Positions 1 to 63,433 of a DNA stretch of 64,000 nucleotides are shown one piece after another (position 1 is the first letter of the stretch; the number at the start of each line of letters is the position of its first letter). Origin of the DNA: Escherichia coli (lineage in GTDB: Bacteria; Pseudomonadota; Gammaproteobacteria; Enterobacterales; Enterobacteriaceae); the NCBI RefSeq assembly GCF_024502345.1, contig NZ_JALDNN010000001.1; one strand, given 5' to 3'. The notes under the pieces were generated by a model, which ran no database searches, had not been told where the DNA came from, and saw nothing but the letters and a program-made list of their open reading frames with translations. The position numbers were made by a program, and so were the translations under genes.

Positions 1-644
1 TGACCGTGCATCGCAAGCTGAGCAATCAGCTTGGAGACGTGCTGAGGTGTGAAGAACTCCCCTCCAGACTTACCGGCATTTGCCGCATAGTTAGAAATCA
101 GGAACTCGTAGGCATCACCAAACAGGTCAATCTGGTGCTCGTTAAAATTCCCCAGGTTAAGCCCTTCAACGCCTTTCAGAACGGCGGCAAGACGGCTGTT
201 TTTGTCTTTAACTGTGTTACCCAGTCGATTGCTGGTCGTATCGAAATCGGCGAACAGGCCTTTGATGTCGGCCTCGGACGGATAGCCGTAGGCAGAGCTT
301 TCTATAGCGACGAAGATACTATTTAAATCAGCATTCAGCCTGTCGTTGGTGTTCGCTTTAGCGGCAACGTTGCAGAACAGCTGGCTCGGGTAGATGAAAT
401 AGCCTTTAGTCCTGATGGCATCGTCTTTGATGTCATCGGTAATGATGCTGTCATCAAGTGCTGCATAATGTATGCTCTCATCCCCTGCTTCCATGTAGCT
501 GGAAAAATTCTCACTGATGAAGCGGTAGAAAAGTGCACCGAGTACATACTGTTTAAAATCCCATCCATCTACTGAGCCCCTGACATCATTGGCAATGGCC
601 CAGATTTGACGGTGTAGCTCTGCACGCTGTTGAAGGCTTGTCAT
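1..644 (-). CDS. hsdM: Type I R-M DNA methyltransferase subunit HsdM, 5' portion only (gene runs off the window start)
   Basis: Minus-strand frame reads [15 protein letters not shown]...; near-identical at nucleotide level to 58480..59122 of the complete hsdM; start codon (cat on + strand) at 642..644. Confidence 0.85.
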
Positions 645-847
645 TTTGTATCCTGTTGTATGATTCTTAAGTACTGTTATTGGCCCGATTTTATCGCAAT
701 TTCATATGGATGACAGGCTTTGTATGTCATGCGTTGCACTGAGAGTTCGTTTGCCCGGTTGTGTAGCCAACACTCTTTCAGTCAGGCCAGTAGAAACGTT
801 GCGCTGACGATAAATACTGAAGCCCCAATACCATCGGGGCTGAACGT

Positions 848-2725
848 TCAGTCGGTGAGAATTTCTTCATCCGTATCCATTGTGGATGGTGATGAATCTA
901 TTTTTGTTGTAAGAAATACCCGATTCAGTAGTCTTTGCTTCAGGGCGTTTCTTCGCTCATTGTAGAATTCCGGGAAGTGACTGAACTCAATATTTTCATC
1001 TGAAACTAACAGCATTGATGGCGAATAGTTGTTTGATGGCTGAGATAGCCATTGTTTCAGGGAAGTATCCTGTTTACTTATATTCTGAGAGTGATTCAGT
1101 AAATGAAGATTCGGTATGGTGTCCCAGTATTCCGGATTTTCATAAAAGCTGAGCTTCTCAGGTGAATTCGCAATATAATCTAGTTTTTCAAGATATTTCT
1201 TTGAAAAATGATTTCTTGGGTGAAGGTGATCAATATGAAATACCTCGGTTGGATTCATTTCAGGGAACAGAAGATGCAATAGTGCGCGGCAACGACCTTC
1301 GCCATATCTGATATTGAGAAGGCTTTCGATGTATTCGTCGTCAAATCTGAGGTCTTTATTCGAGCCTTTATATCTGTCAATAATCTTTTCAAGAGGAAAG
1401 TGAATATCTGAAAGACTATTTTTCATTACCTCTCTGATACTCGTGAGTAGCGCATCTGCCTGGCTTCCAAAGATCCCTTTCAGAAGTACCATGTAAAACC
1501 ACTGGCTAATTACTGAGCGTTCATTGTGGTTTTTATTCAGGAGGTTAATCGTTGTATATAATGGATGTCCACTGGTTTGCTTTTTGTAAAGCCAGTAGAC
1601 CACAGGAATGACTGCATTTTTAGATATCAAAGACTGTGGATTGATGCCGAATCGCCTGATAAGAATAAAGGTCTCCTTGATACAGGATTTTATTTCAGAC
1701 CATTGTTGTTGTATCTTACCGACCTCCTCTGAAGTGAAGTTTTTTACTTTGAACCGGACGTCAGAGTCAATAAGCATCAGGCTGGTTTTTAAGAACCAGT
1801 CTCTTTCAATATAAAAACCCATTTCATTATTCTGATAAATGTTTTTTGTCAGTTCATCCAGTTCTCTTCTGAAATCCCCCTGCCAGTGCGCTACCGCTAT
1901 TGACATCAGTAAGTCTGAAAACTCAAGTTTTGTCCCCCCGCTGTTCGTGCGGATGAAAACATCCAGCACATGATCAATGTCCTGACTGCTCTCATTGAAG
2001 TAGTGGATAAGATTCTCAGTTCTTATCTTGGTATAAAGTTTAAGCAGAGTTTTTCTGGAAAATTCACTGGAAATGAGATCTCTTTTTTCAAGTTCTGGTA
2101 CGACAACGTTAAATAAAATATCATCAGGCGAATCATGTTGCTCGTATTTGAATATTTCGTGCAGGCAGAACCAGTGATGTTTGTTGTCTGTAAGTGAATC
2201 AGCGTATTGCTTGTCGGTCAGGAACCTGAAGTTATACTTCATCATGAGTTCGTCGTCTGACTTAAGTGGCGCGGTTAAATCGACGTAAAGCTTTCTGGGC
2301 GGCAGGATGCGATCATCCTGTGCCGAAGGCCACCACATCCGGGGCTGTTTATACGCATACGTTCCACACAATCCAATATATAATGATGTGAGACGCTGCT
2401 GACCATCAATCACCGCTTTGAAATCATGAAATCCAGCATTTGTTGCTACGCAGGGGTTTTCTTCATTAAATCGCTGACAGTATTCTTTCAGGAATTCATA
2501 GAATTTGTAATCATTTTTAATACTGGCACTACGGATATCCCACATCATGAAAGAGTTTATCGGGTAGTCTCGCATGATGGAATCAAACAGCAAACATATC
2601 TGACTGCTGCTCCAGACGAACTTCCTCTGAATTGCAGGCAGAAGATAGTGGCGTAAATTAATTGAATCTATCGCTTGTTTTATCGTTATTGCTTTTTCAT
2701 ACTGGCCAGCCATCATAAACCTCAT
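848..2725 (-). CDS. DUF262/DUF1524 two-domain nuclease, GmrSD-like (putative modification-dependent Type IV restriction enzyme)
   Basis: 625-aa ORF with N-terminal DGQQR motif (DUF262/ParB-like) and C-terminal HIDHLHP His-Me finger motif (DUF1524); sits between hsdM and the WYL-regulator module. Confidence 0.6.
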   Translation of the reverse strand: MRFMMAGQYEKAITIKQAIDSINLRHYLLPAIQRKFVWSSSQICLLFDSIMRDYPINSFMMWDIRSASIKNDYKFYEFLKEYCQRFNEENPCVATNAGFHDFKAVIDGQQRLTSLYIGLCGTYAYKQPRMWWPSAQDDRILPPRKLYVDLTAPLKSDDELMMKYNFRFLTDKQYADSLTDNKHHWFCLHEIFKYEQHDSPDDILFNVVVPELEKRDLISSEFSRKTLLKLYTKIRTENLIHYFNESSQDIDHVLDVFIRTNSGGTKLEFSDLLMSIAVAHWQGDFRRELDELTKNIYQNNEMGFYIERDWFLKTSLMLIDSDVRFKVKNFTSEEVGKIQQQWSEIKSCIKETFILIRRFGINPQSLISKNAVIPVVYWLYKKQTSGHPLYTTINLLNKNHNERSVISQWFYMVLLKGIFGSQADALLTSIREVMKNSLSDIHFPLEKIIDRYKGSNKDLRFDDEYIESLLNIRYGEGRCRALLHLLFPEMNPTEVFHIDHLHPRNHFSKKYLEKLDYIANSPEKLSFYENPEYWDTIPNLHLLNHSQNISKQDTSLKQWLSQPSNNYSPSMLLVSDENIEFSHFPEFYNERRNALKQRLLNRVFLTTKIDSSPSTMDTDEEILTD

Positions 2726-2786
2726 ATGTTATATTAGCTGGCCTATTTTAATTTATTGCGTGTCGGTAGTACAGTCTTTGCACAAA

Positions 2787-3116
2787 CTAATTTATGCAAT
2801 GGAAAAGCTGACGGCTCGGTTTGTGTTTTTCATTCGGGTAGACTCGCATTGCGGATGCACAAAGTGATGAAACCTGTCTTGCTATATTTTTACCGAAGTT
2901 AACAAGAAGGCCGTGCTTTATTTTTTCACCCTCTGCCCTGATGCTGATGATAAAGCTGAACTGATATACGATTACCTCAATGAGGTCATTGCCAAATGTT
3001 ATAATGGCGGCGTTGTTTATTTCATGTTCATAATCCCTCAGGTCAGTGTTAAGTCTTGCTGTTGCATCTACAAGTGCGTATTCTTTATCGATAATCATAA
3101 CTTTCTCACTTATCAT
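2787..3116 (-). CDS. hypothetical protein (109 aa), paralog of 60147..60482
   Basis: ORF co-directional with and 40 bp downstream of the WYL regulator gene; conservative substitutions versus its paralog; no strong SD, and an overlapping + strand ORF exists, so strand assignment is tentative. Confidence 0.45.
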   Translation of the reverse strand: MISEKVMIIDKEYALVDATARLNTDLRDYEHEINNAAIITFGNDLIEVIVYQFSFIISIRAEGEKIKHGLLVNFGKNIARQVSSLCASAMRVYPNEKHKPSRQLFHCIN

Positions 3117-3156
3117 GTTAATGTGATTTAATCATCACTAATAATATGTTGTGATT

Positions 3157-3870
3157 TTAATTACGATTATTCGTCTGTTTACTCCCGTAATGCATTATCT
3201 TATGAATAATGTTCATGTGGGGTAAGGCTTCCATAAAGTCAGACTGTTCAATCAGCGAAATGAGTGTGTTATCGATCTCAAACGTTGTATCCGGTAATAC
3301 CTCAACCAGCCTGATTCGGGACAGGGAAATAACGAACACGCCCGATGACGTACATCCGGCAAGAAACCACTCCGCATGGCTGCAAAGCAGACGGTAGGGA
3401 TGAACGGTATGGCTGACGTTTTCGTCGGTTCTGATACGCACCTGGGTCTGGTTAAGTATGGCGAGCGTCAGTCTGCTGAAATCACCGAAAAGGGTGGGTT
3501 TCTGGCGCGGCTCCGGTAGCATAATCCTGTATGGCGAGGGACGTTCCCCGTCAAGCATCAGGCTCAGTAGTTTGGCATCCATCGCGGGTAACAGACGGTC
3601 AAGATGCAGCAACCTCGCCAGTATCTTCATATCCCGTTCCGTGCGGCGACGAAAGTAATGTGAGGCAAGCTGATACACGCCGTTGCTCTGTTCAATATCA
3701 AGGTAGGTCAGACGGACGTTGAAATCCCGTCGCAGCGTTCGCGTCGTCACTCCAAATTCTTCTGCCAGCGTCCCGATATGCAGCTTTTCACCCTGAAACA
3801 AACGGCTCAGGATGATGGAAAGGCGGGTTGCCAGTCTGTCATGTTCGTTTTCTTGTGTTATCAGCGTCAT
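3157..3870 (-). CDS. HTH-WYL domain transcriptional regulator (YfjR/BrxR-like architecture)
   Basis: 237 aa; N-terminal HTH (LAEEFGVTTRTLRRDF) and central W-x-L-type motif (HAEWFLAG); differs from paralog 60523..61236 at about 3 residues. Confidence 0.6.
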   Translation of the reverse strand: MTLITQENEHDRLATRLSIILSRLFQGEKLHIGTLAEEFGVTTRTLRRDFNVRLTYLDIEQSNGVYQLASHYFRRRTERDMKILARLLHLDRLLPAMDAKLLSLMLDGERPSPYRIMLPEPRQKPTLFGDFSRLTLAILNQTQVRIRTDENVSHTVHPYRLLCSHAEWFLAGCTSSGVFVISLSRIRLVEVLPDTTFEIDNTLISLIEQSDFMEALPHMNIIHKIMHYGSKQTNNRN

Positions 3871-3972
3871 ACATCATTTCCGAATTTAGCCGGGAAATGA
3901 TGCCAGCAGTAGCGGACAGGATTTGTCCGCCCTCTGAAGTTTTTTAAAGTCTGAATACCTTAAATGTAAGTG

Positions 3973-4288
3973 CTAAACGTCAGTATTCTCAGGTGAATAA
4001 AGATGCTTCTGGCGCATGTAGGCAATAAAAATGCAGGATGGTAGCGTCACCCGGTATGCGGGACCGGCTAAATCAATCAGCAGCCAGAGAGAACTGAGCA
4101 CCCAGCCCACGGGACCGGCAAAAGCGCCCATGGTACGCGTCAGCATGGCATTTCCTGCAACGGTCAGCCCTCTGCCTAACAGGGCTTTCGCCACACCATT
4201 TGTGACAACAAGTGCCATCTGATAGGCCGCAAACCCGGATGTTTTAATCCCCGCCTGGATTGCCATGGTCAGCAGCTCCGGCGTGGGA
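3973..4288 (-). pseudogene. 3' fragment of the 249-aa module protein (paralog of 61339..62088), truncated at a recombination junction
   Basis: Nucleotide homology to 61339..61660 ends abruptly near 4288; only the C-terminal ~100 codons remain. Confidence 0.6.
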
Positions 4289-4289
4289 T

Positions 4290-4562
4290 TGCTGTATCGC
4301 AGACGATACCGAGCAGGAGATACCAGCCATCATCAAGTGCGGTGACGTATTCCGGGTTAGCCAGTGCCACTGCCAGCAGCGGGTCTTCGGGGAGTGTGTC
4401 ATCGTGGTTGAGATGCCAGAGCAGGGTTCCCGTTTCGTTCCAGAAGGCGGTAAACAGGTCGATATCATCGACAGGGCCAAGGATTTCATTGCTGAGGGCC
4501 ACCAGTGCGGAGGCGGGCAGGTTGAGAAGGGGAAGACTGGTGGGAGTCGTGAGTTTAAACAT
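4290..4562 (-). pseudogene. 5' fragment of an unidentified gene fused to the junction at ~4288
   Basis: Start ATG at 4562 (MFKLTTPTSLPLLNLPASALVALSNEILGPVDD...); reading frame runs into the junction and ends in non-homologous sequence. Confidence 0.3.
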
Positions 4563-5081
4563 GATTATCTCCATAAGTAATTGATTCATATTGATAATAT
4601 GTTTTCAAATGACTTTTAGTTACATTTTTTTTACGTTGTTTGCTTATTTTGGATTATGTCCTTAAATTTAGTAGTGGGCTGGCGTTAAATCCCGTTTTTT
4701 TTCCGATTTGCAGCATTTTGTAAGCAAATTAGCATGAGCTGTTTTAACTGAAAATGAGAGAAGGCTTGCGCACAATTGCTATTGATTTTCTTACTTATTT
4801 TCTCAATCACAAAACGCCTTAAATAGTTCAAAAAACAATCAACACCCCATAATCGATATTATTTATGGGGAGAAACGACGTTTAAGCCTGAAAGTGGGGG
4901 AGTGGCACTTTCAGGAGATTAAGGAGGCAAACAGGCCTCTTTAACGCGTGTTTTTCTCACCAAAATGTCAGAGTCGGTGATTTGCACTTCAGTATTTCTG
5001 CCAATACTATTCGCTCCATGTGCTGGCCAGCATCTAACTCAATACCCTTAATCTGTATTAATTGAGCGAGATGTATGCATT

Positions 5082-6404
5082 ATGAAACCCGATAGTTCTT
5101 TAAACCAAATAACGCAGACAATGAAACGGAATGATGTTGATTCTGTGGATAGTCGCTTTTTTGAGTCAGCGCAAAACATGAAAACCAGCGTTGACGTTGA
5201 AGATTGCTGCGTTGAAGTGATGGTTCGACATCACAGCCCAAAGAATCAAAGAGAGGCATTCACTAAAGCTTTTTTTGATGAGTGTAAAATCCGTGCAGTA
5301 CAAACTGGCCGGACTATCGAAGCCAGCGATACAAAATGTACCGGGCTTAAGGCTATATTCCACTCATCCGGACGCATTAAGTTTATTGTCCGCAAAAGTA
5401 TTCGCGGAAAGAATGTTTACGTTGCAGTAGGAAGTTACCCTGAATTTTCCATTAATAACGCAAGGGAACATGCCTTTAAAATAATTCAGGAGCTTAAGGC
5501 TTCCGTTGAGACTTATGGTGAGCGTTTTCTTACGCACAGCAAAATAACGTTTAATGAACTTGTGGAACAGTATGTGAAATGCGTACTTAACACGGGCGTT
5601 AAGCGTTCAGCTAACACCGACCTTTCTAAGATCCGTAAATACCTGCGCCCTCTTCTCGGTGACAAAAAGCTGGCAGGTATGACGGAGGCAGATGTTCTGA
5701 GCTATCTACACGATCTCGATCTTAAGCCTGCCACACGCAACCGCCACCTGGCGCTCATTAAAGCGGTCTTTACCTGGGCTATACGCATGGGATACACCAG
5801 CCGCTCTCCGGCGCTTTATATCAAAGCGCTGCCTGAAGTGACGTCAGATCGCCGCGCCATGGATGACTCCCAGCTTCAGCGCTGGATGGAAGTCTGTGAG
5901 TGCTGGCGTAATGGTAAACCCGATCATGAAGCCCTTGCTCTGCTCATGTTCCTTGCCCTGACGGGGCTGCGTCTGGGGGAAACCCGTCACCTTCGTCTTG
6001 AAGATGTGGACTGGAGCCGCAAGGTTATCACCCTTCGCCATACCAAAAACGGCAAACTCCGCCGTGTACCGGTATGTGATAAGGCTTTCGTTCTTCTGAC
6101 AGAACAGCGTCAGCATCTGGGTGATGAAGGCTGGGTATTTCCGGGCAAGGGGACCGACAATCCGGTTTCTGAGCCGCGTCGCCTGCAAAAACGGCTTTGT
6201 GAGGCTGCGGGTATTCCACCGTTCACCATCCATGAGATGCGCCATACCTTTGCGACAAAACTCATTGAGAGCGGGGCCGACATTCACACCGTCAAAGACT
6301 TACTGGGCCACAGCACTATCAAAGTGACGGAGCTTTACTTGCACGCTTCCCCGGCGCGTTACCACGAAGCTGTTAACCGGGCGATGAATGTTTTTCCGGC
6401 CTAA
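5082..6404 (+). CDS. tyrosine-type site-specific recombinase (phage/island integrase)
   Basis: 440 aa; catalytic-domain motifs GLRLGETRHLRLEDVD, HEMRHTFAT and LLGHSTIKVTELYLH (R-H-R-Y signature). Confidence 0.8.
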   Translation: MKPDSSLNQITQTMKRNDVDSVDSRFFESAQNMKTSVDVEDCCVEVMVRHHSPKNQREAFTKAFFDECKIRAVQTGRTIEASDTKCTGLKAIFHSSGRIKFIVRKSIRGKNVYVAVGSYPEFSINNAREHAFKIIQELKASVETYGERFLTHSKITFNELVEQYVKCVLNTGVKRSANTDLSKIRKYLRPLLGDKKLAGMTEADVLSYLHDLDLKPATRNRHLALIKAVFTWAIRMGYTSRSPALYIKALPEVTSDRRAMDDSQLQRWMEVCECWRNGKPDHEALALLMFLALTGLRLGETRHLRLEDVDWSRKVITLRHTKNGKLRRVPVCDKAFVLLTEQRQHLGDEGWVFPGKGTDNPVSEPRRLQKRLCEAAGIPPFTIHEMRHTFATKLIESGADIHTVKDLLGHSTIKVTELYLHASPARYHEAVNRAMNVFPA

Positions 6405-6476
6405 ACAGAATTCCCCCTCAGGCAAGTGAGTTCTGCGCTTTACTGCCTGTGGTTCACATTCAAAAGGAACCTGTAA

Positions 6477-7172
6477 ATGAATAATAAATCAACACCATCC
6501 CCCTTGACTACAACGACCCCCGCTCGTTTTGCCTGCAGGAAATTAAATGCATTTCTGGCTCGTCGTGCTCTTCATATGAAGGTGGTAAGAAAAAACCTGA
6601 ACAAGGCTGCTGCAATCGACATCGATCTCGATGACATTTCTAAGTGCGGATGCCGTGATGGTCTGCCTGAAGGCTTTGTCAATACTGCAAAAGGGCTTTT
6701 CTATTATGAAGGAAAAAAATGGTACCAGTTAAGCTCGACCCCCATTCTCCCTGTCTACAGGCATTATTCTGATTGTAAAACGCGCAATATGGGCGTCGAG
6801 TTGATGACTATCAACCATGCTGGAGAGTTCGCCTGTGCTGATGTCTCATTAAGTGATGCAATGGTAAAACCTGATCACGTCATGGCTTCTCTGGCGGGCA
6901 AAGGTTTTGGTATCTCCCTGACGATAAAGTCTAAAGAGCTTCTGGTGCAATTCTTACAGGTGTGTATGAAGAAATCGCTGGAATTGCCTACTTATCTTGT
7001 CGCAGATTCGATGGGTTTTGTGCCTGGCAACAAAGCATTTCTTCACGGCAGTATACCTATCGCGCAGCACCTTTTGGAATTTGACTATTTGATTCCGGCT
7101 TCCCGTGTTCCACGAGGGCTTGTCGAGTCGGGAACGCTGGATGACTGGAAAACGATGGTACCTGTGAAATGA
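6477..7172 (+). CDS. hypothetical protein, possibly 3'-truncated island gene
   Basis: 231-aa ORF directly downstream of the integrase; its 3' end overlaps an opposite-strand ORF, suggesting a deletion junction. Confidence 0.35.
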   Translation: MNNKSTPSPLTTTTPARFACRKLNAFLARRALHMKVVRKNLNKAAAIDIDLDDISKCGCRDGLPEGFVNTAKGLFYYEGKKWYQLSSTPILPVYRHYSDCKTRNMGVELMTINHAGEFACADVSLSDAMVKPDHVMASLAGKGFGISLTIKSKELLVQFLQVCMKKSLELPTYLVADSMGFVPGNKAFLHGSIPIAQHLLEFDYLIPASRVPRGLVESGTLDDWKTMVPVK

Positions 7173-9357: not shown

Positions 9358-10221
9358 TCAGAAGAAGAAATCCCAGACGGCACGGGCCACTGACACCACG
9401 GTGGTGCGCACGGCCTGAATGACGGCCCGCACCGGGGCGGGGATCAGGGGAAAGGCACTGATGCTATCGAGTACAGCACCGACGGTTTCACCAAAATCGC
9501 TACGCGCCTGTTCCCGGACTACCGTCGTGCGAAAGGAAGGCTGGAGTTGCGACACCACCGGGCTGGTGGCCTCACGTGGCAGGCACTTAATCATTCGCTC
9601 GGCCATCACCCGCAGTCCCCACTGAAGACGGACCGACACGGCACACACTGGATGTACGGGCTGGAACAGCTCATGCAGCAGGCAGATTTTGCGGCTGATA
9701 TTCTGCTTCTGCGCCGTGGACAACTGTCCCCCACCGCTGGTAGGTTCGGCCTTATCCGACTGGCTGATAACAAACAGCACCTTATGCCGGTATACCTCTC
9801 CAATCACCTGATGATAAAAATGTTCATCCACCGTCAGCGCCCGGTCATCGGCCTTAATCAGCCACAGTACCAGGTCGAGGCGAGGAAGCTGTTCGCGGTA
9901 CAGCGCAGCATACTCGGTATCGCGAGCACCACTTTCGCCCACGCCGGGCAGATCCATCAGCGTTATATAGCGGTCGCCAACCTGCAGGCGAAAGCGCAGT
10001 GGCTCACGTGTACAGGCCGCCACATCGCTGACCGGTGATACCTCACTGGCAAACAGGGCATTGCAGAGTGAGGATTTACCGGCACCGCTCTTACCCATAA
10101 TGCCGATCACTGGCTCGTAGCGGGTTAACTGATTTATCTGCTGCAATATACGTTCAGACACCCACTGTGGCAGACCAGCGAGCGATTGCTGAAACGGCTT
10201 CAATCCTTCAGAATTGTTCAT
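9358..10221 (-). CDS. yfjP: island-associated GTPase, YfjP/YeeP/YkfA family
   Basis: Walker A GKSGAGKSSLCNALF; start placed at MNNSEGLKPFQQSL with GAGGAG SD. Confidence 0.8.
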   Translation of the reverse strand: MNNSEGLKPFQQSLAGLPQWVSERILQQINQLTRYEPVIGIMGKSGAGKSSLCNALFASEVSPVSDVAACTREPLRFRLQVGDRYITLMDLPGVGESGARDTEYAALYREQLPRLDLVLWLIKADDRALTVDEHFYHQVIGEVYRHKVLFVISQSDKAEPTSGGGQLSTAQKQNISRKICLLHELFQPVHPVCAVSVRLQWGLRVMAERMIKCLPREATSPVVSQLQPSFRTTVVREQARSDFGETVGAVLDSISAFPLIPAPVRAVIQAVRTTVVSVARAVWDFFF

Positions 10222-47649: not shown

Positions 47650-49517
<1,868 letters not shown>

Positions 49518-49616
49518 TATTACTGTCGCCTGTAAATAACCGGCACAGTGCGAACACCATGCCGGGAGATTATGGCTGACAAAACGGGAACGACAGGATC
49601 CCGCTGTTGTCGGGGG

Positions 49617-50013: not shown

Positions 50014-50689
50014 GTACTGACGGGGTGGTGCGTAACGGCAAAAGCACTGCCGGACATCAGCGCTATCTCTGCTCTCACTGCCGTAAAACATGGCAACTGC
50101 AGTTCACTTACACCGCTTCTCAACCCGGTACGCACCAGAAAATCATTGATATGGCCATGAATGGCGTTGGATGCCGGGCAACCGCCCGCATTATGGGCGT
50201 TGGCCTCAACACGATTTTCCGCCATTTAAAAAACTCAGGCCGCAGTCGGTAACCTCGCGCATACAGCCGGGCAGTGACGTCATCGTCTGCGCGGAAATGG
50301 ACGAACAGTGGGGATACGTCGGGGCTAAATCGCGCCAGCGCTGGCTGTTTTACGCGTATGACAGGCTCCGGAAGACGGTTGTTGCGCACGTCTTCGGTGA
50401 ACGCACTCTGGCCACACTGGAGCGTCTTCTGAGCCTGCTGTCGGCCTTTGAGGTCGTGGTATGGATGACGGATGGCTGGCCGCTGTATGAATCACGCCTG
50501 AAGGGAAAGCTGCACGTTATCAGCAAGCGTTACACTCAGCGCATTGAGCGACATAATCTGAATCTGAGACAATATCTGGCAAGGCTGGGACGGAAGTCAC
50601 TGTCGTTCTCAAAATCGGTGGAGCTGCATGACAAGGTCATCGGGCATTATCTGAACATAAAACACTATCAGTAAGTTGGAGTCATTACC
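50014..50689 (+). mobile_element. IS1, 5'-truncated copy (lacks left inverted repeat and start of insA)
   Basis: Match to IS1 begins inside insA (TACTGACGGGGTGGTGCGTAACGG) and continues to the right end ...GAGTCATTACC at 50689. Confidence 0.85.
50171..50674 (+). CDS. insB: IS1 InsB
   Basis: 167 aa, a few substitutions relative to the 27476..27979 copy. Confidence 0.85.
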
Positions 50690-50781
50690 CGGAGTAACTT
50701 GTCAGAAACATCAATCTTCGTCATCATTTCAAAGAAAAATAATTAGTTAAAGCAGTCCGGGCTGATTGCCCGGACTGCTTA

Positions 50782-52044
50782 CTATTTTAATGGATTGTTA
50801 ATCTTTGCATATTCAAACGGACTGATACCCTTCTCCCGGTTCGCATCCAGAAAATCGGCCCACCATTGCAACATCAGTCGCCGTTCTTCCAGATGTTCTG
50901 CTTTATGGATATACGCAGCACGTACACCATTACGCTCCTGATGGCTCATCTGACGTTCCACAGCATCGCGGGACCACAAACCTGATTCAATCAATGCACT
51001 GCACGCCATCGCCCGGAATCCATGGCCACAGACTTCCTGGGTTGTGTCATACCCCATCACCCTCAGGGCTTTATTTACAGTATTTTCACTGATTGGTTTA
51101 CGCGGGTCATGTGCACCCGTAAATATCAGACCATTTTCACCTGCCCATGTCTGAAGTTCTGTCAGTATGGCTACAGCCTGTTTGCTGAGTGGCACAAGAT
51201 GTGGTGTTCGCATCTTGGAGCCCCGGTGTGAGAATTTTACGCCGGGCAGAGGTTCGCGTTCGGCTGGAATAGTCCACATGGCATTGTCAATATCAATTTC
51301 AGACCACCGGGCGTATCTGAGTTCACTGGAACGAATAAAAACCAGTAAATTCAGCGTAACGGCAAGCTGGGTGACAGGTTGCCCCTTGTAACTGCTAATA
51401 CGCGACAAAAGTTCAGGCAGGCGAGAAAGATCAAGAGCGGGGCGATGCTGGCGTTTTACAGTGGTCAATGCGCCAGCCATATCCAGAGCAGGATTATATC
51501 TGATGATGCCAGACTGTACGGCATAACGCATTACAGCAGATATTCTTTGCTGCAGACGACTGGCGATTTCATAAATTTGTTTAGCTTCTGCGGCACGAAC
51601 AGGGATAAGCAGGTCCGGGGTACGGAGTGTTGTGATATCCCGGTTGCCGATAAAGGGGAAAACGTGTGTCTCGAGGCTTTTGAGTACTTTATCGCTGTGT
51701 GATTGTGCCCATTGTTTATTACTGGCATGCCAGCGTCGTGCAATATGTTCAAAAGAGAGTTGTAAATCAGGGACTACTTTTTTAGCTCTTTTTTGTTCGC
51801 AAGGGTCAACCCCCTCCGAAATCAGTTTTCGGGCCTCATCCCGTTTTGTACGAGCTTCGGAGAGAGAAACTTCCGGATACACACCAAGTGCCAGGGTTTT
51901 CTCCTTACCCAGAATACGATAACGGAGACGCCAGTAACGGGAACCATTAGGATGAACCAGCAGGAACATGCCGGCCCCGTCAGTGAGTTTATAAGCCTTG
52001 TCAGTGGGCTTTGCAGCCCGGATTTTTGCGTCAGTCAGTGCCAT
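50782..52044 (-). CDS. P4-type tyrosine integrase (tRNA-associated genomic island integrase)
   Basis: 420 aa, MALTDAKIRAAKPTDKAYKLTDGAGMFLLV... N-terminal arm-binding domain and catalytic R..HGFR..Y core; adjacent to a tRNA-Phe 3' fragment. Confidence 0.85.
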   Translation of the reverse strand: MALTDAKIRAAKPTDKAYKLTDGAGMFLLVHPNGSRYWRLRYRILGKEKTLALGVYPEVSLSEARTKRDEARKLISEGVDPCEQKRAKKVVPDLQLSFEHIARRWHASNKQWAQSHSDKVLKSLETHVFPFIGNRDITTLRTPDLLIPVRAAEAKQIYEIASRLQQRISAVMRYAVQSGIIRYNPALDMAGALTTVKRQHRPALDLSRLPELLSRISSYKGQPVTQLAVTLNLLVFIRSSELRYARWSEIDIDNAMWTIPAEREPLPGVKFSHRGSKMRTPHLVPLSKQAVAILTELQTWAGENGLIFTGAHDPRKPISENTVNKALRVMGYDTTQEVCGHGFRAMACSALIESGLWSRDAVERQMSHQERNGVRAAYIHKAEHLEERRLMLQWWADFLDANREKGISPFEYAKINNPLK

Positions 52045-52567: not shown

Positions 52568-52906
52568 CTAAAATAGCCGAGCAGCAAACGCCAAAACAAC
52601 AATACTGACATTACCATTAACTGTCGCGATAGTTCTGAGTCGGTCGTCTTTCAGGGTTTTACCGTCAAATGTTGCGATGGTGCGGAGTCGATCGTCTTTC
52701 AGGGTCTTTCCATCAAAGGTAGCGATGGTGCGGAGTCGGTCGTCTTTCAGGGTTTTACCGTCAAAAGTTGCGATGGTTCTGAGCCGGTCGTCTTTCAGGG
52801 TTTTACCGTCAAACGTTGCGATGGTCCTGAGTCGATCATCTTTCAAGGTCTTGCCATCAAAGGTCGCGATAGTCCTGAGTCGATCGTCTTTTATAGTTAC
52901 GCTCAT
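52568..52906 (-). CDS. tandem-repeat protein: five identical 16-aa units (KDDRLRTIATFDGKTL) plus a degenerate sixth
   Basis: 48-bp DNA units differ from each other only at synonymous positions; AGGAGA SD before the second ATG; about 215 bp downstream of hsdR on the same strand. Confidence 0.6.
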   Translation of the reverse strand: MSVTIKDDRLRTIATFDGKTLKDDRLRTIATFDGKTLKDDRLRTIATFDGKTLKDDRLRTIATFDGKTLKDDRLRTIATFDGKTLKDDRLRTIATVNGNVSIVVLAFAARLF

Positions 52907-53127
52907 AAGCATTCTCCTGTGATACGTCCGTTCAGCACTTTACCATCCAAAATAAAGCACTGGTTTCTGTAAGTTCTGGGCGCTAATCATTTGAATATGC
53001 GTTTAAAATCCATCCAGTTAGCATTAACATTAACCAGCGCTTCATCGATCATAACAGGTCTGATGCAGGTTAAAAGATACAATCTTACCTATAAATTGCG
53101 GTAGCGCATTGCTCTGTTATCTGGCAT

Positions 53128-56100
53128 CTAGAGGTGCCCTCCAACCCCTTTAAATTTTTCGATAAACGCCCCAATTTTCTGGAATACGGTCTGCTTTTTC
53201 GTTTTGTACTGAGGATTCAGCGGACTGAGCTTTGGTAGCGTCTCATTTAGCTCAGTGCCATTTTCGGTAGCATACTCCCGTTTGAGTGATGTGCGGATAT
53301 AGCGCCTTGCAGCCTCTTCATTGAGGTTTTCTTCCTTAATCAACGCCTCTGCTTCCCGTTGCTGTTCACGCTGAGCATAGGTAAAGAATGCATCAATGAT
53401 ACTGGCCTTGTCCGGCATGTCATCAAGGTTAGTTTGCTGAATAAAGTCAACAATCAGACCTTCTTTGGCACGGTTGCCCAGACTTGAGCGGATTAAGCGT
53501 CTGACCTCTTCAGTCAGGGCTTCTTTACCTTTTTTCTCTCTGTTGTGGTCGAAAATCAGGCCAAGGATGTAATCCAGGTTAATTTCCTGCGACTTCAGCA
53601 GGTCAATTTCAAACACCACGTCATCCCAGTCTGTGGTTGATTTATCCCTGTCGTTTGATGCTTTTTCGCGTCGCTGCCAGTCCCGGATATCATTGTATGC
53701 TGAGCGATAGTCCTGAACTTTACGTTCTGCCGGGAGACGAATGGTTTGTAATTCAGCAAATTTTTCATCATCCACATAGTGCTCTGCTTTAAAGGTTTCT
53801 ACCGCTTCCGGGTCACTAATATCAACCTTCTGCAGGGCTTTCAGCGTGGCAAATTCATCATAGTTTTGCAGGATGTTTTCTGCCCGCAGATATTCACCAA
53901 ACAGTTTGACGAAGGCTTTTTTCTCTTTTTCACTGTCGATACTGGCAGGGTCAGGGAAGCGCTGCTCCAGCTCCGAAACAACAGCCATAAAACCTCGTTT
54001 AGCCTCACCGGTTGCCGCATCGGTAAAGCCCTGCATGTACTCTTCGTAGCTTTTTTCCAGCACCACATTCTTGGTGTTTTTGTCGCCAAAAAGTGTGATG
54101 GCATCAATGGTCGGACGCTCCAGGTCCCTGAAAGTCACGATATTGCCGAAGGTTTTGGTTGCATCATAGATACGGTTGGTGCGTGAGAATGCCTGCATCA
54201 GACCGTGATAACGCAGGTTTTTGTCAACGAACAGAGTATTGAGCGTCGGGGCATCAAAGCCGGTTAAGAACATTCCCACCACGATGAGAAGGTCGATATC
54301 CTGATTTTTCACTCGTTGAGCTAAATCGCGGTAGTAGTTCTGGAAGCCGTTACTGTCGGTACTGAAATTGGTTTTAAAGTGGTTGTTATAGTCATCAATG
54401 GCTGAATCCAGGAATTCCTTTGCGCTGCTGTTCATTGCGCTGGTATCAAAGCTTTCGTCAGTAATATCACCAATGGCGCTTTGCTCTTCATTAGCAGCAA
54501 AAGAGAAGATGGTTGCCACACGAAGACGTTTATAGCTGCCAGATTTCTTCTCAGCTTCTTCCTGTAGCATTTTAAATGTCGTGTAATAAGCTTTTGCCGC
54601 GTCCACGCTGCTCACTGCTAACATGGCATTGAAGCCTTTTGCTCCCGGGAAGGTACGATGCGTTTTCTGGCGGAAGTTATTGAGAATGTATTGCGTTATT
54701 TCCTGGATACGCAGTGGGTGCAGAAAGGCCTGCTGGTTTTCAGCCGCGCTGAGTTTTTTCTCGTCTGTTTCCGTTTCAAGGGACTTAAACTGTGGGCGGA
54801 CATCGTTATAGTCCACCTTAAACTTCAGCACTTTTTCATCACGAATCGCATCAGTAATTACGTAAGAATGTAATTCACGCCCGAAGACGCTGGCGGTGGT
54901 TTCTGCCCCCAGTGCATTTTCCGGGAAAATAGGCGTACCGGTAAAACCAAACTGATAAAAGCGTCTGAATTTCTTTTTGAGGTTTTTCTGGGCCTCACCA
55001 AACTGGCTGCGGTGACACTCATCAAAGATAAACACCACCTGCTGCTGATAGACGGGCAGGTCAGCTTCGGCTTTCATCAGGTTATTGAGTTTCTGAATGG
55101 TTGTGACGATAATTTTGTTATCGTCCTTATCCAGGTTTCTTCTGAGGCCAGCTGTATTATCCGAACCATTCACACTGTCCGGAGAGAAGCGCTGATACTC
55201 CTTCATGGTCTGGTAATCGAGGTCTTTCCTGTCGACCACGAAGAAGACTTTATCAATAAAGTCCAGCTCGGTTGCCAGTCGTGCGGCCTTAAAACTGGTC
55301 AGGGTTTTTCCTGACCCTGTGGTATGCCAGATAAACCCGCCGCTTTCGGGTTTTGACCAGTTCTTCGCTTTAAAAGAGCTGTTGATTTTCCAGAGAATGC
55401 GCTCAGTGGCCGCTATCTGATAGGGACGCATGACCAGCAGTGTCTGGCTGCTGTCAAACACGCTGTAATTAAACAGAACATTCAGCAGGGTATGCTTCTG
55501 GAAGAAAGTGGCGGTAAAGTCCTTCAGGTCCTTTATCAGGGTGTTATCCGATTTCGCCCAGTTCATGGTGAAATCAAAGCTGTTTTTATCCCGCTTAGTG
55601 GTACTGGCAAAGTACCGGGTATCAGTCCCGTTGGAAATCACGAAGAGTTGCAGGTATTTAAACAGGGAGTTATCGCTGTTAAAGCTTTCCTTGCTGTAAC
55701 GGTGTATCTGGTTAAAGGCTTCACGAATCGCCACGCCGCGCTTTTTGAGTTCGATTTGCACCAGTGGCAGGCCGTTGACCAGAATGGTGACGTCATAACG
55801 GTTAGCGTGTGAGCCGGTCTGCTCAAACTGCTGAATGACCTGCACCTTATTGCGCAGCAGGTTCTTTTTATCTATCAGATAGATGTTTTCCAGACGACCA
55901 TCATCAAACGTAAAATCACAGATATAGTCGATATGGATTTTACGGGTTTTGTCCAGGCTGCTGTCACTGGGGCTGTCCAGATACTGCTCTGCGAAGCGCC
56001 GCCATTCACTTTCGTTAAACTCCACACCATTAAGACGCTGAAGCTGGTCCCGCACATTCGCCAGCATCGCAGTCGGTGACTTAACGGAGATAAACTCATA

Positions 56101-56244
56101 CCCCTGATTAAGAAGGTCCTGAATCAGCTCCCGCTCAAGGTCCAATTCGCTCTGGTAGCTGTCACCGGTATCCATAACTTTTGTGTATTTATCAAGGACG
56201 ATAAAGTTATTGGATTCAGCAATGGTGTGTGTCTGTTGTGTCAT
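53128..56244 (-). CDS. hsdR: Type I restriction enzyme R subunit (Type IC, EcoR124-like)
   Basis: 1038 aa; Walker A GSGKT, DEAH-box [10 protein letters not shown]-terminus [20 protein letters not shown] resembles recalled EcoR124I HsdR. Confidence 0.9.
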
Positions 56245-56360: not shown

Positions 56361-57569
56361 TCAGTTGCTAGTTGTTTCGTGCTTCGGGAAGCTGAACAAC
56401 AAGTCGCGATAGTACTCGTACTGCTTCTGGCGTAGTTCTATTTCACGGGGTAAGCCTTCGGTGATAGAGCTTGTTAATGTGTCGAATTTATCGAGTATGG
56501 TGACAATCCTAACTTGCTCTGACTTTGAAGGGATTGGTAGTAAAAGGTCCTCCATTTGTTTTTTGGATACGGCAGGAATACCTCCTTTCTGCTGAATACC
56601 CGTTAATTTGGTCTCGGATTGTTTCAGATAGTAATAGACATACATCCAATGCAACTGTTCAGTGCTTCTAACAGAGATGGAATAGCAACTATTGCCTGCC
56701 CAGTAAGGAGTGGAACTCTTATTTACAAATCCTGCATTTGCTCCACGCGCACTCACAATAATCTTATCGCCATCATTGTTGAAGTCTTCGTAGTAACCTG
56801 TAGGAGTCCGCCCTCCGTTGTAGACCGGATAATCTGCGTCAGGATTCTGCTTGTCCTTACGGACAAACGCACCAATTGTAATTATTGCTACTTCCCCCAG
56901 ACTCTTCCACTCAACACTCCCCCCCTCAAAACTCAGCAATTGGTTACGATAGTAATTGTACTGCTTTTTACGCATGGTAAGCTCAGCTGTAAGCTCAGCT
57001 GTAAGAGCAGTAAATTTATCCAGAATTCGGACGATTTCAGACTGGATGGTCAGAGACTTTTCAGGATTTTCCGGGCAAGGAATGGGGGCTTTATATGCTG
57101 AAATCATTTGAAGATTCAGCCCACCACGCCCGCTGTTCCCAGATGATATCTGACGTAGATTATCATACTGGGTTTCCAAAAAGTGGAAAATATAATCTGA
57201 ATTGATCTTCCGCTCATCAAATGTAATGGCTGCAAGTGATTGATTGGTGGTTAATTTAATGCGGGTTCTTGCTACTTTACCACGAGTTTTACCCTGACCT
57301 GCTAATGCCATAACAATGGAATTTTCAGGAACAAATTTAGCACTTGAGTTATTTAATCCATCCTCAGTAATGAATGTCTCAGTTTCTTTGATGGTTTTTA
57401 AATTTACTTCACCTGAACTCATCCAGGGGATAGTTCCATGCTCCCAATATTCTGTTTTTTTAGTATCAGGGGTGCCACCAGAATAAATTTTTTTTGCAAC
57501 CTTACCGAGAGGGAACCACTCAACCTCAATCCCCTCCAGCAGTTTTTCCAGATAATTTAGCTTACTCAT
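56361..57569 (-). CDS. hsdS: Type I R-M specificity subunit (Type IC), two TAEL repeats in the central conserved region
   Basis: 402 aa; conserved central ...[27 protein letters not shown]... and C-terminal ...[37 protein letters not shown]; 4-bp overlap with hsdM. Confidence 0.85.
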
Positions 57570-59122
57570 GCCTGCGCCTCGTAGCCTTCAATTTCTGCCA
57601 CAATCGCATCAATGTCTTTGCGTAACTGGTCGATTTTGCTGACCGTGGTTTTAAGCTCAACATTCAGTTCGGTGATATCGACGATTTCACGGGTATCTTT
57701 TGCTTCGACGTAGCTACTGACAGACAGATTGTAGTCATTACCAGCAACAGTCTCTAATGGCACCGTTTTCGCCAGATGGTCAGTATCTGCCTTACTGTTG
57801 AACACATCCATAATCTGCTTAATATGACCATCAGTCAGGATATTGTTATTGGTTTCTTTCTTAAACAACCCGCTGGCGTCAATAAACTGAACGCGGGTAT
57901 CTGTTTTGTGCTTGGACAACACTAGTATGTTAACGGCAATGGTGGTGCCGAAGAACAGATTTGGTGCCAGAGAAATCACCGTTTCAACATAGTTGTTGTC
58001 GACCAGGTACTGGCGGATTTTCTGCTCTGCTCCGCCACGGTAGAAAATACCGGGGAAGCAAACTATTGCTGCACGCCCTTTAGCTGACAGGTAGTTTAGT
58101 GCATGTAGCACAAACGCAAAGTCAGCTTTTGATTTCGGGGCCAGTACGCCAGCAGGAGCAAAGCGCTCATCGTTAATCAGGGTCGGATCATCACTACCAA
58201 TCCACTTAACCGAGTACGGTGGGTTAGAAACAATCGCATCGAACGGTTTTTCATCGCCAAAGTGAGGCTCAGTCAGGGTATTCCCCAACCTGATATCAAA
58301 CTTATCGTAGTTGATGTTGTGCAGGAACATATTCATACGCGCCAGGTTAAACGTCGTATGATTTATCTCTTGTCCGAAAAAACCTTCTTCAATGATATGA
58401 TTATCAAAGTGCTTCTTCGCCTGAAGCAGCAGTGAGCCAGAGCCTGCGGCAGGGTCATAGATTTTGTTGACGTGAGTCTGACCATGCATCGCAAGCTGAG
58501 CAATCAGCTTAGAGACGTGCTGTGGTGTGAAGAACTCCCCGCCAGACTTACCGGCATTCGCCGCATAGTTTGAAATCAGGAACTCGTAGGCATCACCGAA
58601 AAGGTCAATCTGGTGCTCATTAAAATCCCCGAGCTTTAGCCCCTCAACGCCTTTCAGAACGGCAGCGAGGCGGCTGTTTTTGTCTTTGACGGTGTTACCC
58701 AGTCGATTGCTGGTCGTATCGAAATCGGCAAACAGACCTTTGATGTCGGCCTCAGACGGATAGCCGTAGGCAGAGCTTTCAATAGCGACGAAGATACTGT
58801 TTAAATCAGCATTCAGCCTGTCGTTGGTGTTCGCTTTAGCGGCAACGTTGCAGAACAGCTGGCTCGGATAGATGAAATAGCCTTTAGTCCTGATGGCATC
58901 ATCTTTGATGTCATCGGTAATGATGCTGTCATCAAGTGCTGCATAATGTATGCTCTCATCCCCTGCTTCCATGTAGCTGGAAAAATTCTCACTGATGAAG
59001 CGGTAGAAAAGGGCACCGAGTACATACTGTTTAAAATCCCATCCATCTACTGAGCCCCTGACATCATTGGCAATGGCCCAGATTTGACGGTGTAGTTCTG
59101 CACGTTGTTGAAGACTGGTCAT
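57566..59122 (-). CDS. hsdM: Type I R-M N6-adenine DNA methyltransferase subunit
   Basis: 518 aa; catalytic NPPY motif (SNPPYS) and AdoMet-binding region [10 protein letters not shown]. Confidence 0.9.
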
Positions 59123-59710
59123 TTTTATCCTGTTATCGATTCTTGGTTTCGGCTATTGCTGCGATTTTATCGCAATTTTACTTCTTTGACAGGTTTGAGT
59201 GATGCCTGATAGCCTCCCCAATGAAGGTTAAAATGGTTAATGAAATGTACAGAGAATCAATCGGATATGCTGTTTCGATTTCTGGAGCATCATTAGCGGT
59301 GTTTAGGGGCAGTTCATTACATTTCTGACCTTGTATAGATATGCCGTGATGAAATAAACGTTCACAGCCATCATCTGATCGGTGTGCAACAAAGGCGTCA
59401 TTCATTAAATACGCAGAGAGCCTGACTTATTGCGTCAACGGGTGAGTTACAATGTTGAATCTGGTAACGCCAAAACTGTGTAATTATCTACGCTAAATCA
59501 TTTCTGGTTAGCGTGACCGACGCCGGCGGTCTTAAGATGTACAATTCTTACTGTCTCCGAATGAATTTTATTTATTCAAACAGACTTGGGTGATATTATT
59601 ATCAAGTGAAAATGCCTGTTACCTACCTTGATGATATATACAGTGTTTTTACAGATGAATTTATATGTTTGTAATCAATGCGTGAGTTTGATGTTTTTAA
59701 GGTTAGTTAA

Positions 59711-60031
59711 ATGAAACAGCTATTGGATTTTATAATTGGAAGTTGTGTGGATAACAGAACCAAATTTCAGTTGCTTGCAGTTTGTTATCCAAAATGTAAG
59801 GATGATGAAGTGATGTTGATTTTGCGCTGGAGGGTAGCTGATTTGTATGCGCATGAACTGGAAGTTCAGAATTATCTTTTTAGAGAGCTGGAAGGTATCA
59901 TAGAGAAAATCACGGGCCTGCCTGAAACCTATTTTGTATCAAGCTATAAATCACTATTGACCGATGATTTTAGAGAACTCACAGCAGCGGGGGTTGATGT
60001 TTGTAAGTTTATTATGGAAAACAAAGGTTAG
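59711..60031 (+). CDS. hypothetical small protein (106 aa) in the variable slot between hsdM and the WYL module
   Basis: AT-rich ORF with AAGG SD 8 nt upstream; divergent from hsdM; occupies the position held by the GmrSD-like gene in the left-hand locus. Confidence 0.4.
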   Translation: MKQLLDFIIGSCVDNRTKFQLLAVCYPKCKDDEVMLILRWRVADLYAHELEVQNYLFRELEGIIEKITGLPETYFVSSYKSLLTDDFRELTAAGVDVCKFIMENKG

Positions 60032-60146
60032 TTGGATAAGAACCAACACATTTTCAGGTTCTGTTCTGGCTGAGGAACCTGAATATTCAATCAATGTGTT
60101 AGTTCTATTTTTGATGGTTAGATTTAAATGTGATTCTTTTGCGGTG

Positions 60147-60482
60147 TTATACTGCTGTTATGCATCTAAAAAGCTGACGGCTTTGTTTATGTTTTATGTT
60201 CGGATAGATTCTCATCGCAGCTGCACAGAGAGGTGAAACCTGCCTTGCTATATTTTTACCAAAGTTAACAAGAAGACCATGCTTGATCTTTTCACTATTC
60301 GTTCTGACTTTGATGACAAAGCTGAACTGATATACGATTACCTCAATGAGGTCATTGCCAAATGTTATACTGGCAGCGTTGTTTATTTCATGTTCATAAT
60401 TCCTCAGGTCAGTGTTAAGTCTTGCTGTTGCATCTACAAGTGCGTATTCTTTATCGATAATCATAACTTTCTCACTTATCAT
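60147..60482 (-). CDS. hypothetical protein (111 aa), paralog of 2787..3116
   Basis: Last gene of the module operon; conservative substitutions versus its paralog. Confidence 0.45.
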   Translation of the reverse strand: MISEKVMIIDKEYALVDATARLNTDLRNYEHEINNAASITFGNDLIEVIVYQFSFVIKVRTNSEKIKHGLLVNFGKNIARQVSPLCAAAMRIYPNIKHKQSRQLFRCITAV

Positions 60483-60522
60483 GTTAATGTGATTTAATCA
60501 TCACTAATAATATGTTGTGATT

Positions 60523-61236: not shown

Positions 61237-61338
61237 ACATCATTTCCGAATTTAGCCGGGAAATGATGCCAGCAGTAGCGGACAGGATTTGTCCGCCCTC
61301 TGAAGTTTTTTAAAGTCTGAATACCTTAAATGTAAGTG

Positions 61339-62618: not shown

Positions 62619-62692
62619 GTTCCCTTATGGATTGAAAAGCGGAGACAGCCTGCCATACGGGGTGGTCAGGAGATGTCCGGCAGAGAAAAAAG

Positions 62693-63375: not shown

Positions 63376-63433
63376 AACATTCAGTTCCTTACTACGGGGG
63401 AGAGGGGGGATGCGGGGGAAACGTTGTGAACAC

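Follow-up and report, generated by a model that had tools for sequence, protein, structure and literature searches.

The two ends of a 64,000-nucleotide chromosomal stretch of Escherichia coli contig NZ_JALDNN010000001.1 (assembly GCF_024502345.1), referred to below as the window, were compared in detail. Both ends carry a defence locus, and the two loci are probably separately acquired variants of one integrative island, in which the contents of a slot between a small conserved gene (hyp) and the type I restriction-modification (R-M) gene hsdM were swapped by homologous recombination in the flanks. In the left copy the slot is occupied by an intact brxU-type gene of the GmrSD family, and in the right copy by an unrelated orphan open reading frame (ORF), orf106.

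Sequence comparison of the two loci

BLAST comparison of the window with itself revealed two homologous blocks, both with E = 0. Positions 1..720 match 58479..59196 with 92.9% identity and 2 small gaps, and 2792..4296 match 60158..61662 with 97.0% identity and no gaps. Both copies have the same orientation and are separated by 58 kb. An initial annotation, made from the letters alone, had described two paralogous hsdM-linked loci with near-identical flanks. Its block coordinates were correct within about 20 bp and the homology could be confirmed by the alignment. The term near-identical is appropriate for 3200..4296, which is identical to 60566..61662, but not for the hyp end, where the alleles hypL and hypR share 87% amino acid (aa) identity. 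Differences in the right flank are concentrated accordingly: 44 of the 45 mismatches fall within its first 400 bp, in the hyp gene, one lies in 3192-3291 and none in 3292-4296. The resulting identical tract of about 1.1 kb, covering yafY and the 3' part of jukA, stops exactly where the deletion junction of the left copy sits, and the adjacent segments diverge by 5-12%. At the other flank, the 214 codons of the left HsdM are 99% identical to the right-copy HsdM at the aa level.

Between these blocks no similarity of the left and right slots could be detected (blastn, word size 7, best E 0.07), and a tblastn search of the right slot gave no BrxU remnant (best E 0.15). The GC content is 40.4% in the left slot, 37.5% in the right slot and 51.3% in the window. 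Both inserts had been recognized in the initial annotation, as a GmrSD-like nuclease gene at 848..2725 and an unrelated AT-rich 106-aa ORF at 59711..60031, and both descriptions hold. The left gene is an intact ORF of 625 aa, the product of which matches PADLOC family HEC-05 (1.8e-230), Pfam GmrSD_N (2e-33) and, over its full length (residues 9-600), the BrxU structure PDB 7P9K (1.7e-99); HEC-05 corresponds to BrxU (10.1101/2024.01.29.577857). The N-terminal DUF262 (GmrSD_N) domain carries the DGQQR nucleotide-binding motif, with IDGQQRLTSL aligned to LDGQQRITAL of BrxU. In a putative C-terminal His-Me finger region FHIDHLHPR aligns with FHVDHIYPK of BrxU (H-x-D-H), while the Pfam scan returned no DUF1524 match.

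Origin of the two copies

Related islands were collected in a scan with one genome per species (GTDB) and from further genomes. The hsdM 5' part of the left copy is 95.2% identical to the right copy and 98.3% identical to the best other island, and for the hyp gene the corresponding nucleotide identities are 88.3 and 99.4%. The right slot together with hypR is 100% identical to E. coli AREA_C483. Each copy is thus closer to other genomes than to its sister, which argues for two acquisitions of different variants and not for duplication in situ. A segmental duplication within this chromosome, after which one of the two islands received another cassette, would account for the direct orientation, the distance of 58 kb and the shared identical tract. 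It is nevertheless unlikely, since hsdM-5' and hyp are closer to other genomes or genera (98-99%) than to the sister copy (95 and 88%), the right slot has its identical counterpart in AREA_C483, and the 43 kb in between consist of ordinary chromosome and a CP4-6-like element with IS (insertion sequence)-rich junctions. Even the small sample available suggests that the copies separate everywhere but in the yafY-jukA tract.

Over 896 bp of yafY-jukA there are 0 mismatches between the copies, whereas the best other island differs at 5 positions and most differ at 20-60. This tract probably goes back to gene conversion within the genome or to a recombinant ancestor common to both copies. Abrupt shifts of identity between adjacent segments are also seen among the sampled islands (the ET846 locus L001, for example, is 98.8% identical in hyp and 94.0% in yafY), and they characterize the family as a recombining mosaic.

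Proposed mode of exchange at the slot

The slot has the same edges in its empty, BrxU and orf106 states, namely the stop codon of hyp and a position just upstream of the hsdM -35 element; in the left copy, the two sequences cease to be homologous at about 720, immediately upstream of this element. All three states therefore retain the hsdM promoter-like site. No bracketing direct or inverted repeats, attachment (att) sites or target-site duplications were found at the slot edges 721..2791 and 59197..60157. The hyp allele co-varies with the cassette, hypL accompanying BrxU in every case and an hypR-type allele accompanying orf106. The common edges, the lack of bracketing repeats and the linkage of hyp allele and cassette together indicate exchange by homologous recombination in the flanks. 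Slot contents would accordingly change hands when island variants meet, and not via transposition or a dedicated cassette recombinase.

Movement of the cassettes by a site-specific system, either integron-like or based on an island integrase, is extremely improbable. The sharp and reproducible edges in three states and the presence of up to three tyrosine recombinases in the island could speak for it. However, neither cassette is bracketed by repeats, the hyp allele is tied to the cassette and identity rises away from the slot, as after homologous exchange, and the sharp edges fall on a stop codon at one side and a promoter at the other, where selection would be expected to set them.

The promoter-like site of the right copy contains a perfect palindrome, TGCGAT-AAA-ATCGCA, over its -10 element (TGCGATAAAATCGCA). 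The palindrome is found at 59160..59174, at 684..698 in degenerate form and at about 10205..10219 of the Edwardsiella ictaluri locus L042, and is thus conserved from E. coli to E. ictaluri. It could serve as an operator for YafY or another regulator. It was also considered as a repeated operator of the island, but it occurs only once per copy.

Several points weigh against the reading of two separately acquired island variants with exchanged slot contents. There is no tRNA gene, att site or island end within the window, so that integration at tRNA-Phe is a possibility in this genome. The survey was small, with 10 GTDB loci and about 25 other contexts, and the exact hyp/hsdM slot showed no more than three states; in one of these, orf106 has an orientation opposite to its neighbours and purifying selection on it is scarcely evident. 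For the identical tract of 1.1 kb, polishing of the assembly could be the cause instead of gene conversion, and the defence roles are predicted from homology. The junctions at 7164 and 48411-50015, finally, occur in 0 of 5,426 complete E. coli genomes and are seen in this assembly only. This uniqueness, and the fact that an exact repeat of 1.1 kb can mislead short-read assemblers, would also suit an assembly artefact, in which a single locus is represented twice or a chimeric join passes through the repeat. We consider such an artefact very improbable. The divergence of 5-12% in hsdM-5' and hyp and the unrelated inserts are unlike a collapsed or duplicated locus; beyond 4296 the left copy resumes 2.76 kb further on, which is the signature of a deletion and not of a repeat-mediated misjoin; and 2-3 copies are also present in other E. 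coli genomes. Separate acquisition of two variants remains the preferred explanation.

The coordinates of the features in both copies and in the relatives are collected in Table 1.

Table 1. Features of the two island copies in the window and of cargo regions in related loci (positions in relatives are those of the locus named).
Feature	Position	Strand	Remarks
Left copy
hsdM, 5' part	1..644	-	N-terminal 214 codons; open frame, gene runs off window start
hsdM promoter-like site	684..716	-	CTGTCA-17-TAAAAT, overlaps degenerate palindrome TGCGATAAAATCGGG; marks left-slot edge
Slot, state A	721..2791		2.07 kb, 40.4% GC
brxU-type gene, GmrSD family	848..2725	-	intact, 625 aa; PADLOC, Pfam and PDB matches
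hyp, allele hypL	2787..3116	-	backbone gene, accompanies BrxU
yafY	3157..3870	-	237 aa, putative regulator with DeoR-type helix-turn-helix (HTH) and WYL; Pfam, PADLOC
Tract identical in both copies	3200..4296		about 1.1 kb; = 60566..61662
jukA pseudogene remnant	3973..4296	-	C-terminal 107 of 249 codons; ends at junction 4295/4296
hyp117, backbone orphan, 5' part	4297..4589	-	fused at deletion junction; 4295..7164 = L001 15055..17923 at 98.8%
Island tyrosine integrase	5082..6404	+	440 aa; 100% aa identical to ET846; PHROG integrase match
DUF927 gene, N-terminal fragment	6477..7172	+	island breaks at about 7159-7164
Right copy
IS1	50015..50691		outer edge of right island
Tyrosine integrase	50782..52044	-	420 aa, distal end of right island as in G3/10; 100% aa identical to G3/10; PHROG integrase match
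5-fold beta-flower protein gene	52568..52912	-	name from annotation of relatives
hsdR	53128..56244	-	type IC / EcoR124-type, intact, 1038 aa; PADLOC REase_I, E = 0
hsdS	56361..57569	-	402 aa; PADLOC Specificity_I, 9e-123
hsdM	57566..59122	-	518 aa; PADLOC MTase_I, 5e-119
hsdM promoter-like site	59160..59192	-	perfect palindrome over -10; also in E. ictaluri
Slot, state B	59197..60157		0.96 kb, 37.5% GC
orf106, orphan ORF	59711..60031	+	strand opposite to all neighbours; coding status weakly supported
Nested imperfect hairpin	60039..60106		between convergent orf106 and hyp; inverted repeats I1 and I4
hyp, allele hypR	60147..60482	-	accompanies orf106; 100% identical to AREA_C483
yafY	60523..61236	-	HTH and WYL
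jukA	61339..62088	-	DUF3944/YaaW, intact, 249 aa; PADLOC JukA, 1.5e-72, full length
hyp128, DeoR-like (79 aa), LRAT/C40 and DUF2787 backbone genes	62232..63862	-	island continues beyond window end
Relatives
E. ictaluri L042			hyp, about 110 bp with terminator-like hairpin, hsdM promoter, hsdMSR; empty slot
Edwardsiella tarda L038/L039	9798..11161		TM2-domain gene (214 aa) and 243-aa gene between yafY and hyp, then hsdMSR
E. coli L033-L035	9841..13468		Lamassu (LmuA hydrolase type, LmuC, LmuB 3e-162) right after yafY
Silvania hatchlandensis L013	2138..3644		Kiwa beside yafY; kwaB split in two ORFs (140 + 159 aa)
Morganella morganii L012	11200..13669		671-aa MutL-N/GHKL ATPase and 143-aa partner at cargo position
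L036, L040			Hcp-associated (type VI secretion system-like) genes; DUF6708 gene

States of the slot in other genomes

A probe consisting of anchor plus cassette matched 172 of the 5,426 complete E. coli genomes, and in 71 of these 172 BrxU, hyp and YafY are contiguous. The BrxU state is also present in several other genera. The orf106 state is intact in a single complete E. coli genome, AREA_C483. About 11 further E. coli genomes match only the hsdM-proximal part of slot B (strain 81, which was inspected, is cut by IS5), and 3 more carry a slot-B fragment, flanked by IS1 in the inspected strain S1. Outside E. coli, this state was found in Kluyvera georgiana and several metagenome contigs, and nowhere but at this slot. 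Partial-anchor classes of E. coli were considered as a source of alternative cargo, but those inspected were truncations by IS1, IS3 or IS5.

These results bear on the hotspot proposed in the initial annotation, where cargo would be swapped between conserved anchors. Paralogous loci, shared flanks, unrelated inserts and three slot states agree with it. On the other hand, the anchors are genes of the island and not of the chromosome, hsdM is itself cargo, and the states are few: the survey of the anchor pair yielded the empty, BrxU and orf106 states, while most other E. coli variants proved to be IS truncations. The hyp/hsdM position is thus a slot with few states and not a highly polymorphic hotspot.

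The right slot could also be non-functional filler, either a decayed insert or an expanded intergenic region, with orf106 as a chance ORF and the presence or absence of brxU as the true polymorphism. This has a substantial probability, although we lean somewhat towards the other side. No match for orf106 was obtained in Pfam, PADLOC, NCBIfam or PHROGs, and its protein clusters number only 4 in 5.8 billion, always from this slot. Comparison with Kluyvera gave 9 non-synonymous and 5 synonymous codon changes, and a single-sequence AlphaFold2 (AF2) model had a pLDDT (predicted local distance difference test) of 46.7, too poor for a fold search. The strand opposite to the neighbours and the low GC content also suit filler; for comparison, 96.7% of embedded defence genes are co-oriented (10.1101/2024.01.29.577857). 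Against filler, the frame of orf106 is kept open in several metagenomes as well as in E. coli and Kluyvera, with 92-100% aa identity and at a constant location. Conservation is slightly higher in the ORF (95%) than elsewhere in the slot (about 91%), there is a hairpin behind its stop codon, and the 0.96-kb segment is unrelated to the spacer of about 110 bp in the empty state. As a functional gene orf106 is weakly supported, and nothing found points to a role in defence. The hairpin is a possible bidirectional terminator. Imperfect direct repeats (ATGTTTGTAA, TTGATGTTT.TAAG.TTA and AAGGTTAGTT) were seen at 59665..59708, upstream of the orf106 start, and at 59994..60033, at its 3' end; in AT-rich DNA they may be due to chance. 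No non-coding RNA was found in either slot by Rfam, the only hit in the window being isrC, elsewhere.

Island backbone and cargo

The backbone order is int-DUF927-int-two orphans-DUF2787-LRAT-DeoR-hyp-JukA-WYL(YafY)-hyp, the first integrase being of the P4 type. In ET846, NCTC 13148 and G3/10 the complete order reads beta-flower / hsdR-S-M / DUF262 / hyp / YafY / JukA / hyp / DeoR / LRAT / DUF2787 / two orphans / integrase / DUF927 / Arm-domain protein / integrase. The island adjoins tRNA-Phe on the pheV side in E. coli ET846 and on the pheU side in G3/10. The same island was found at 95-99% aa identity in Pseudocitrobacter, several Enterobacter species, Mixta and Buttiauxella. It is bimodular, with a conserved core followed by variable defence cargo: the integrases through JukA-YafY are conserved across relatives and the DNA beyond the WYL gene is variable.

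For a comparison of cargo, distant YafY homologues were traced to their contigs (Table 1). The JukA-WYL relatives with Lamassu, Kiwa, the GHKL ATPase or type VI secretion system-like genes have no hsd genes at all, which makes hsdMSR itself cargo; the hyp/hsdM slot is a second variable position nested inside it. The E. tarda insert between yafY and hyp reveals another point of insertion in this module, and neither of its two genes has a PADLOC family match. In the Lamassu variant the genes lie on the opposite strand, hyp is absent and the locus abuts cadCBA. The split kwaB of S. hatchlandensis is probably a frameshift pseudogene. The 671-aa protein of M. morganii is weakly similar to BbrUII/HgiDII, and the pair to which it belongs, without a PADLOC match, is a candidate for an uncharacterised defence pair. 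G3/10 has a more remote backbone variant, with 36-54% aa identity, at 829866..838000 (L003), at the same position relative to the CP4-6-like element; the cargo of this variant is a cluster of five TIR-domain genes and it is truncated by IS1. Fragments of the BrxU-WYL segment bounded by IS were also found on plasmids. On the 122-kb qnrS1 plasmid pQnrS1_005237 (L045, 5760..9573), an IS-bounded fragment contains an hsdM remnant, brxU, IS1 and a truncated WYL gene, and adjoins a type II Zorya system; pieces of the island cargo therefore reach plasmids.

In the right copy hsdR, hsdM and hsdS are all full length in one cluster according to PADLOC. Their assignment to type IC (EcoR124) is based on the Pfam domains of orthologues, as the EcoR124_C domain is present in those of hsdR. 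Among the islands HsdR and HsdM are 94-99% identical and HsdS only about 40%, by which the island variants would each differ in type I specificity. With HsdM so nearly identical, subunits could be shared between two copies in one cell.

Genes of the conserved flank

The hyp gene (about 104-111 codons) is a conserved member of the backbone, with 47-87% identity across genera (alignment A1). Its AF2 model has a pLDDT of 88.6, and all relatives retrieved by fold search are uncharacterised. A weak resemblance to IS200/HUH-fold proteins (PDB E about 0.01) was discarded, as the alignment lacks the HUH motif.

YafY matches Pfam HTH_DeoR (6e-6) and WYL (5e-4) as well as the PADLOC WYL profile, and the proteins of the two copies show three C-terminal differences. 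The genes run in the order yafY>hyp>brxU>hsdMSR, all on the minus strand, so that a gene for a winged HTH and WYL protein is located upstream of, and co-oriented with, the defence genes. Membership of YafY in the BrxR family, for which the BrxR paper uses a BLASTP threshold of E < 1e-5, was rejected on sequence. This test was indirect: among all PDB chains, a library assumed to include the BrxR and CapW structures, phmmer with YafY detected no structure of a WYL regulator at E <= 10.

The 249-aa gene in which the left copy had been reported to be truncated encodes a JukA homologue, which means that the flank itself is a defence gene. The truncation was confirmed, but is at 4296 and not at about 4288. 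JukA orthologues combine Pfam DUF3944 and Ubiq_cyt_C_chap. JukA has been described as the sensor of a jumbo-phage-killer (Juk) system; its commonest gene neighbours are WYL and R-M genes, its partner genes are variable, and some JukA proteins act alone (10.1101/2022.09.17.508391). The neighbouring genes scanned gave no PADLOC match to JukB.

As predicted from their families, unmodified foreign DNA would be cut by the type I system, and DNA that carries modified cytosines and evades this system would be cut by BrxU. JukA may act against jumbo phages, and the WYL protein is probably a regulator of transcription.

Decay of the left copy and the DNA between the copies

The left copy aligns with other islands over 1..4296, jumps 2.76 kb (12295 to 15055 in L001/ET846) and continues to 7164. 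At 4295/4296 a clean deletion has taken out the first 142 jukA codons, one and a half orphan genes, hyp128, DeoR, LRAT and DUF2787; the junction shows a 2-bp TA microhomology and is free of IS elements. At about 7159-7164 the DUF927 gene is broken and joined to the DUF5983 gene of the CP4-6-like element (DUF5983/CbtA...), again without an IS and with imperfect microhomology only. The left copy is an eroding remnant, while the right copy, up to the window end, is intact.

The CP4-6-like element is 100% identical to that of G3/10, and the window is collinear with this genome up to 48411. Collinearity ends in an IS30 (47658..48809), which is followed by a 1.6-kb segment of separate origin, the IS1 at 50015..50691 and the right island. 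The 1.6-kb segment encodes the Hfq-binding small RNA isrC (49025..49147, minus strand; Rfam RF01387, 140 bits). A simple inversion relative to G3/10 was rejected as the cause of the 58-kb spacing, since collinearity stops inside IS30 and the foreign 1.6-kb segment intervenes.

Comparison with known systems

Enterobacterial pipolins are bimodular elements with a core of two tyrosine recombinases, two orphans, DUF2787 and WYL near the attachment site and a distal, exchangeable defence cargo, which includes type I R-M and is exchanged with other mobile elements; tandem or multiple copies per genome have been reported, and pipolin-like islands without piPolB are mentioned in passing (PMC11551731). 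The island shares with them the bimodular organization at tRNA genes and the order int-orphan-orphan-DUF2787, and the proteins are homologous at 24-39% identity. Towards the pipolin of Vibrio proteolyticus (L044; int-127-142-DUF2787...piPolB), blastp gave 33% identity for the integrase (3e-57), 27 and 31% for the orphans (2e-6 and 2e-25) and 39% for DUF2787 (2e-31). Unlike L044, which has piPolB, none of the island loci contains a DNA_pol_B_2 gene, and DUF927 lies between the integrases instead. Other differences are the addition of LRAT, JukA and the small hyp gene to the core and, in the E. coli relatives, tRNA-Phe as the target. With piPolB absent, DUF927 in its place and a homologous core, the island is a piPolB-less relative of the pipolins.

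The defence island of pEFER has the arrangement BrxR (WYL) - BREX - BrxU (PMC8565348, PMC9122601). In both elements a WYL regulator lies upstream of a methylation-based system that is paired with a BrxU-type type IV enzyme. The partner is a type IC R-M system on a chromosomal island here and BREX on a plasmid there, and the WYL protein of the window has 237 aa and no detectable sequence similarity to solved structures, those of BrxR-type WYL regulators among them.

GmrSD-like genes in or beside type I R-M loci are known from TgvAB on VPI-2 of V. cholerae (10.1101/2024.04.04.588119) and from HEC-05/06 and "guilt by embedding" (10.1101/2024.01.29.577857). In the window, brxU similarly adjoins the hsd genes and is co-oriented with them, and by analogy the combination would be expected to provide complementary restriction of hypermodified phages. 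In contrast to the two-protein TgvAB, however, brxU encodes a single-protein enzyme. Its place is ahead of hsdM, with the regulator module on one side and the operon on the other, and not between hsd genes. Neither slot gene is embedded in the sense of Payne et al. 2024, brxU being outside hsdM-S-R and orf106 on the opposite strand. The Juk systems are resembled by the right copy in its full-length JukA homologue (DUF3944/YaaW, Cbp3-like) and its WYL and R-M neighbours, but differ from it in JukB, which was not detected among the island neighbours scanned.

Unrelated defence systems reportedly interchange at a fixed backbone site in the P2/P4 hotspots (said to have been described by Rousset in 2022), in hotspot 5 of the SXT integrative and conjugative element (by LeGault in 2021) and in phage-inducible chromosomal islands (by Fillol-Salom in 2022). 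The present island belongs to another backbone family, and unlike in these hotspots a smaller second slot is nested in its cargo.

Implications

The element belongs to a known type of mobile defence island and shows clear but ordinary cargo swapping, and none of these findings overturns the current understanding. A bolder proposal can be formulated, in which JukA-WYL-hyp would form a sensor and regulator platform activating BrxU, orf106, TM2, Lamassu, Kiwa or the GHKL ATPase, and orf106-hypR would be a new small anti-phage or anti-restriction-control gene in the place of BrxU; we regard it as unlikely. The orf106 and hyp genes, the E. tarda pair of TM2-domain and 243-aa genes and the 671-aa GHKL ATPase are uncharacterised candidates at a defence-cargo position.

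The island offers a natural example of the turnover of defence cargo, as one slot between a stop codon and a promoter is found empty, with BrxU or with an orphan ORF. Both filled states occur together in one genome, and the traces of recombination are kept in the flanks. A single element joins pipolin-like bimodular islands, WYL/JukA defence neighbourhoods and the combination of GmrSD with type I R-M, and it points to a fairly common piPolB-less relative of the pipolins in the Enterobacterales.

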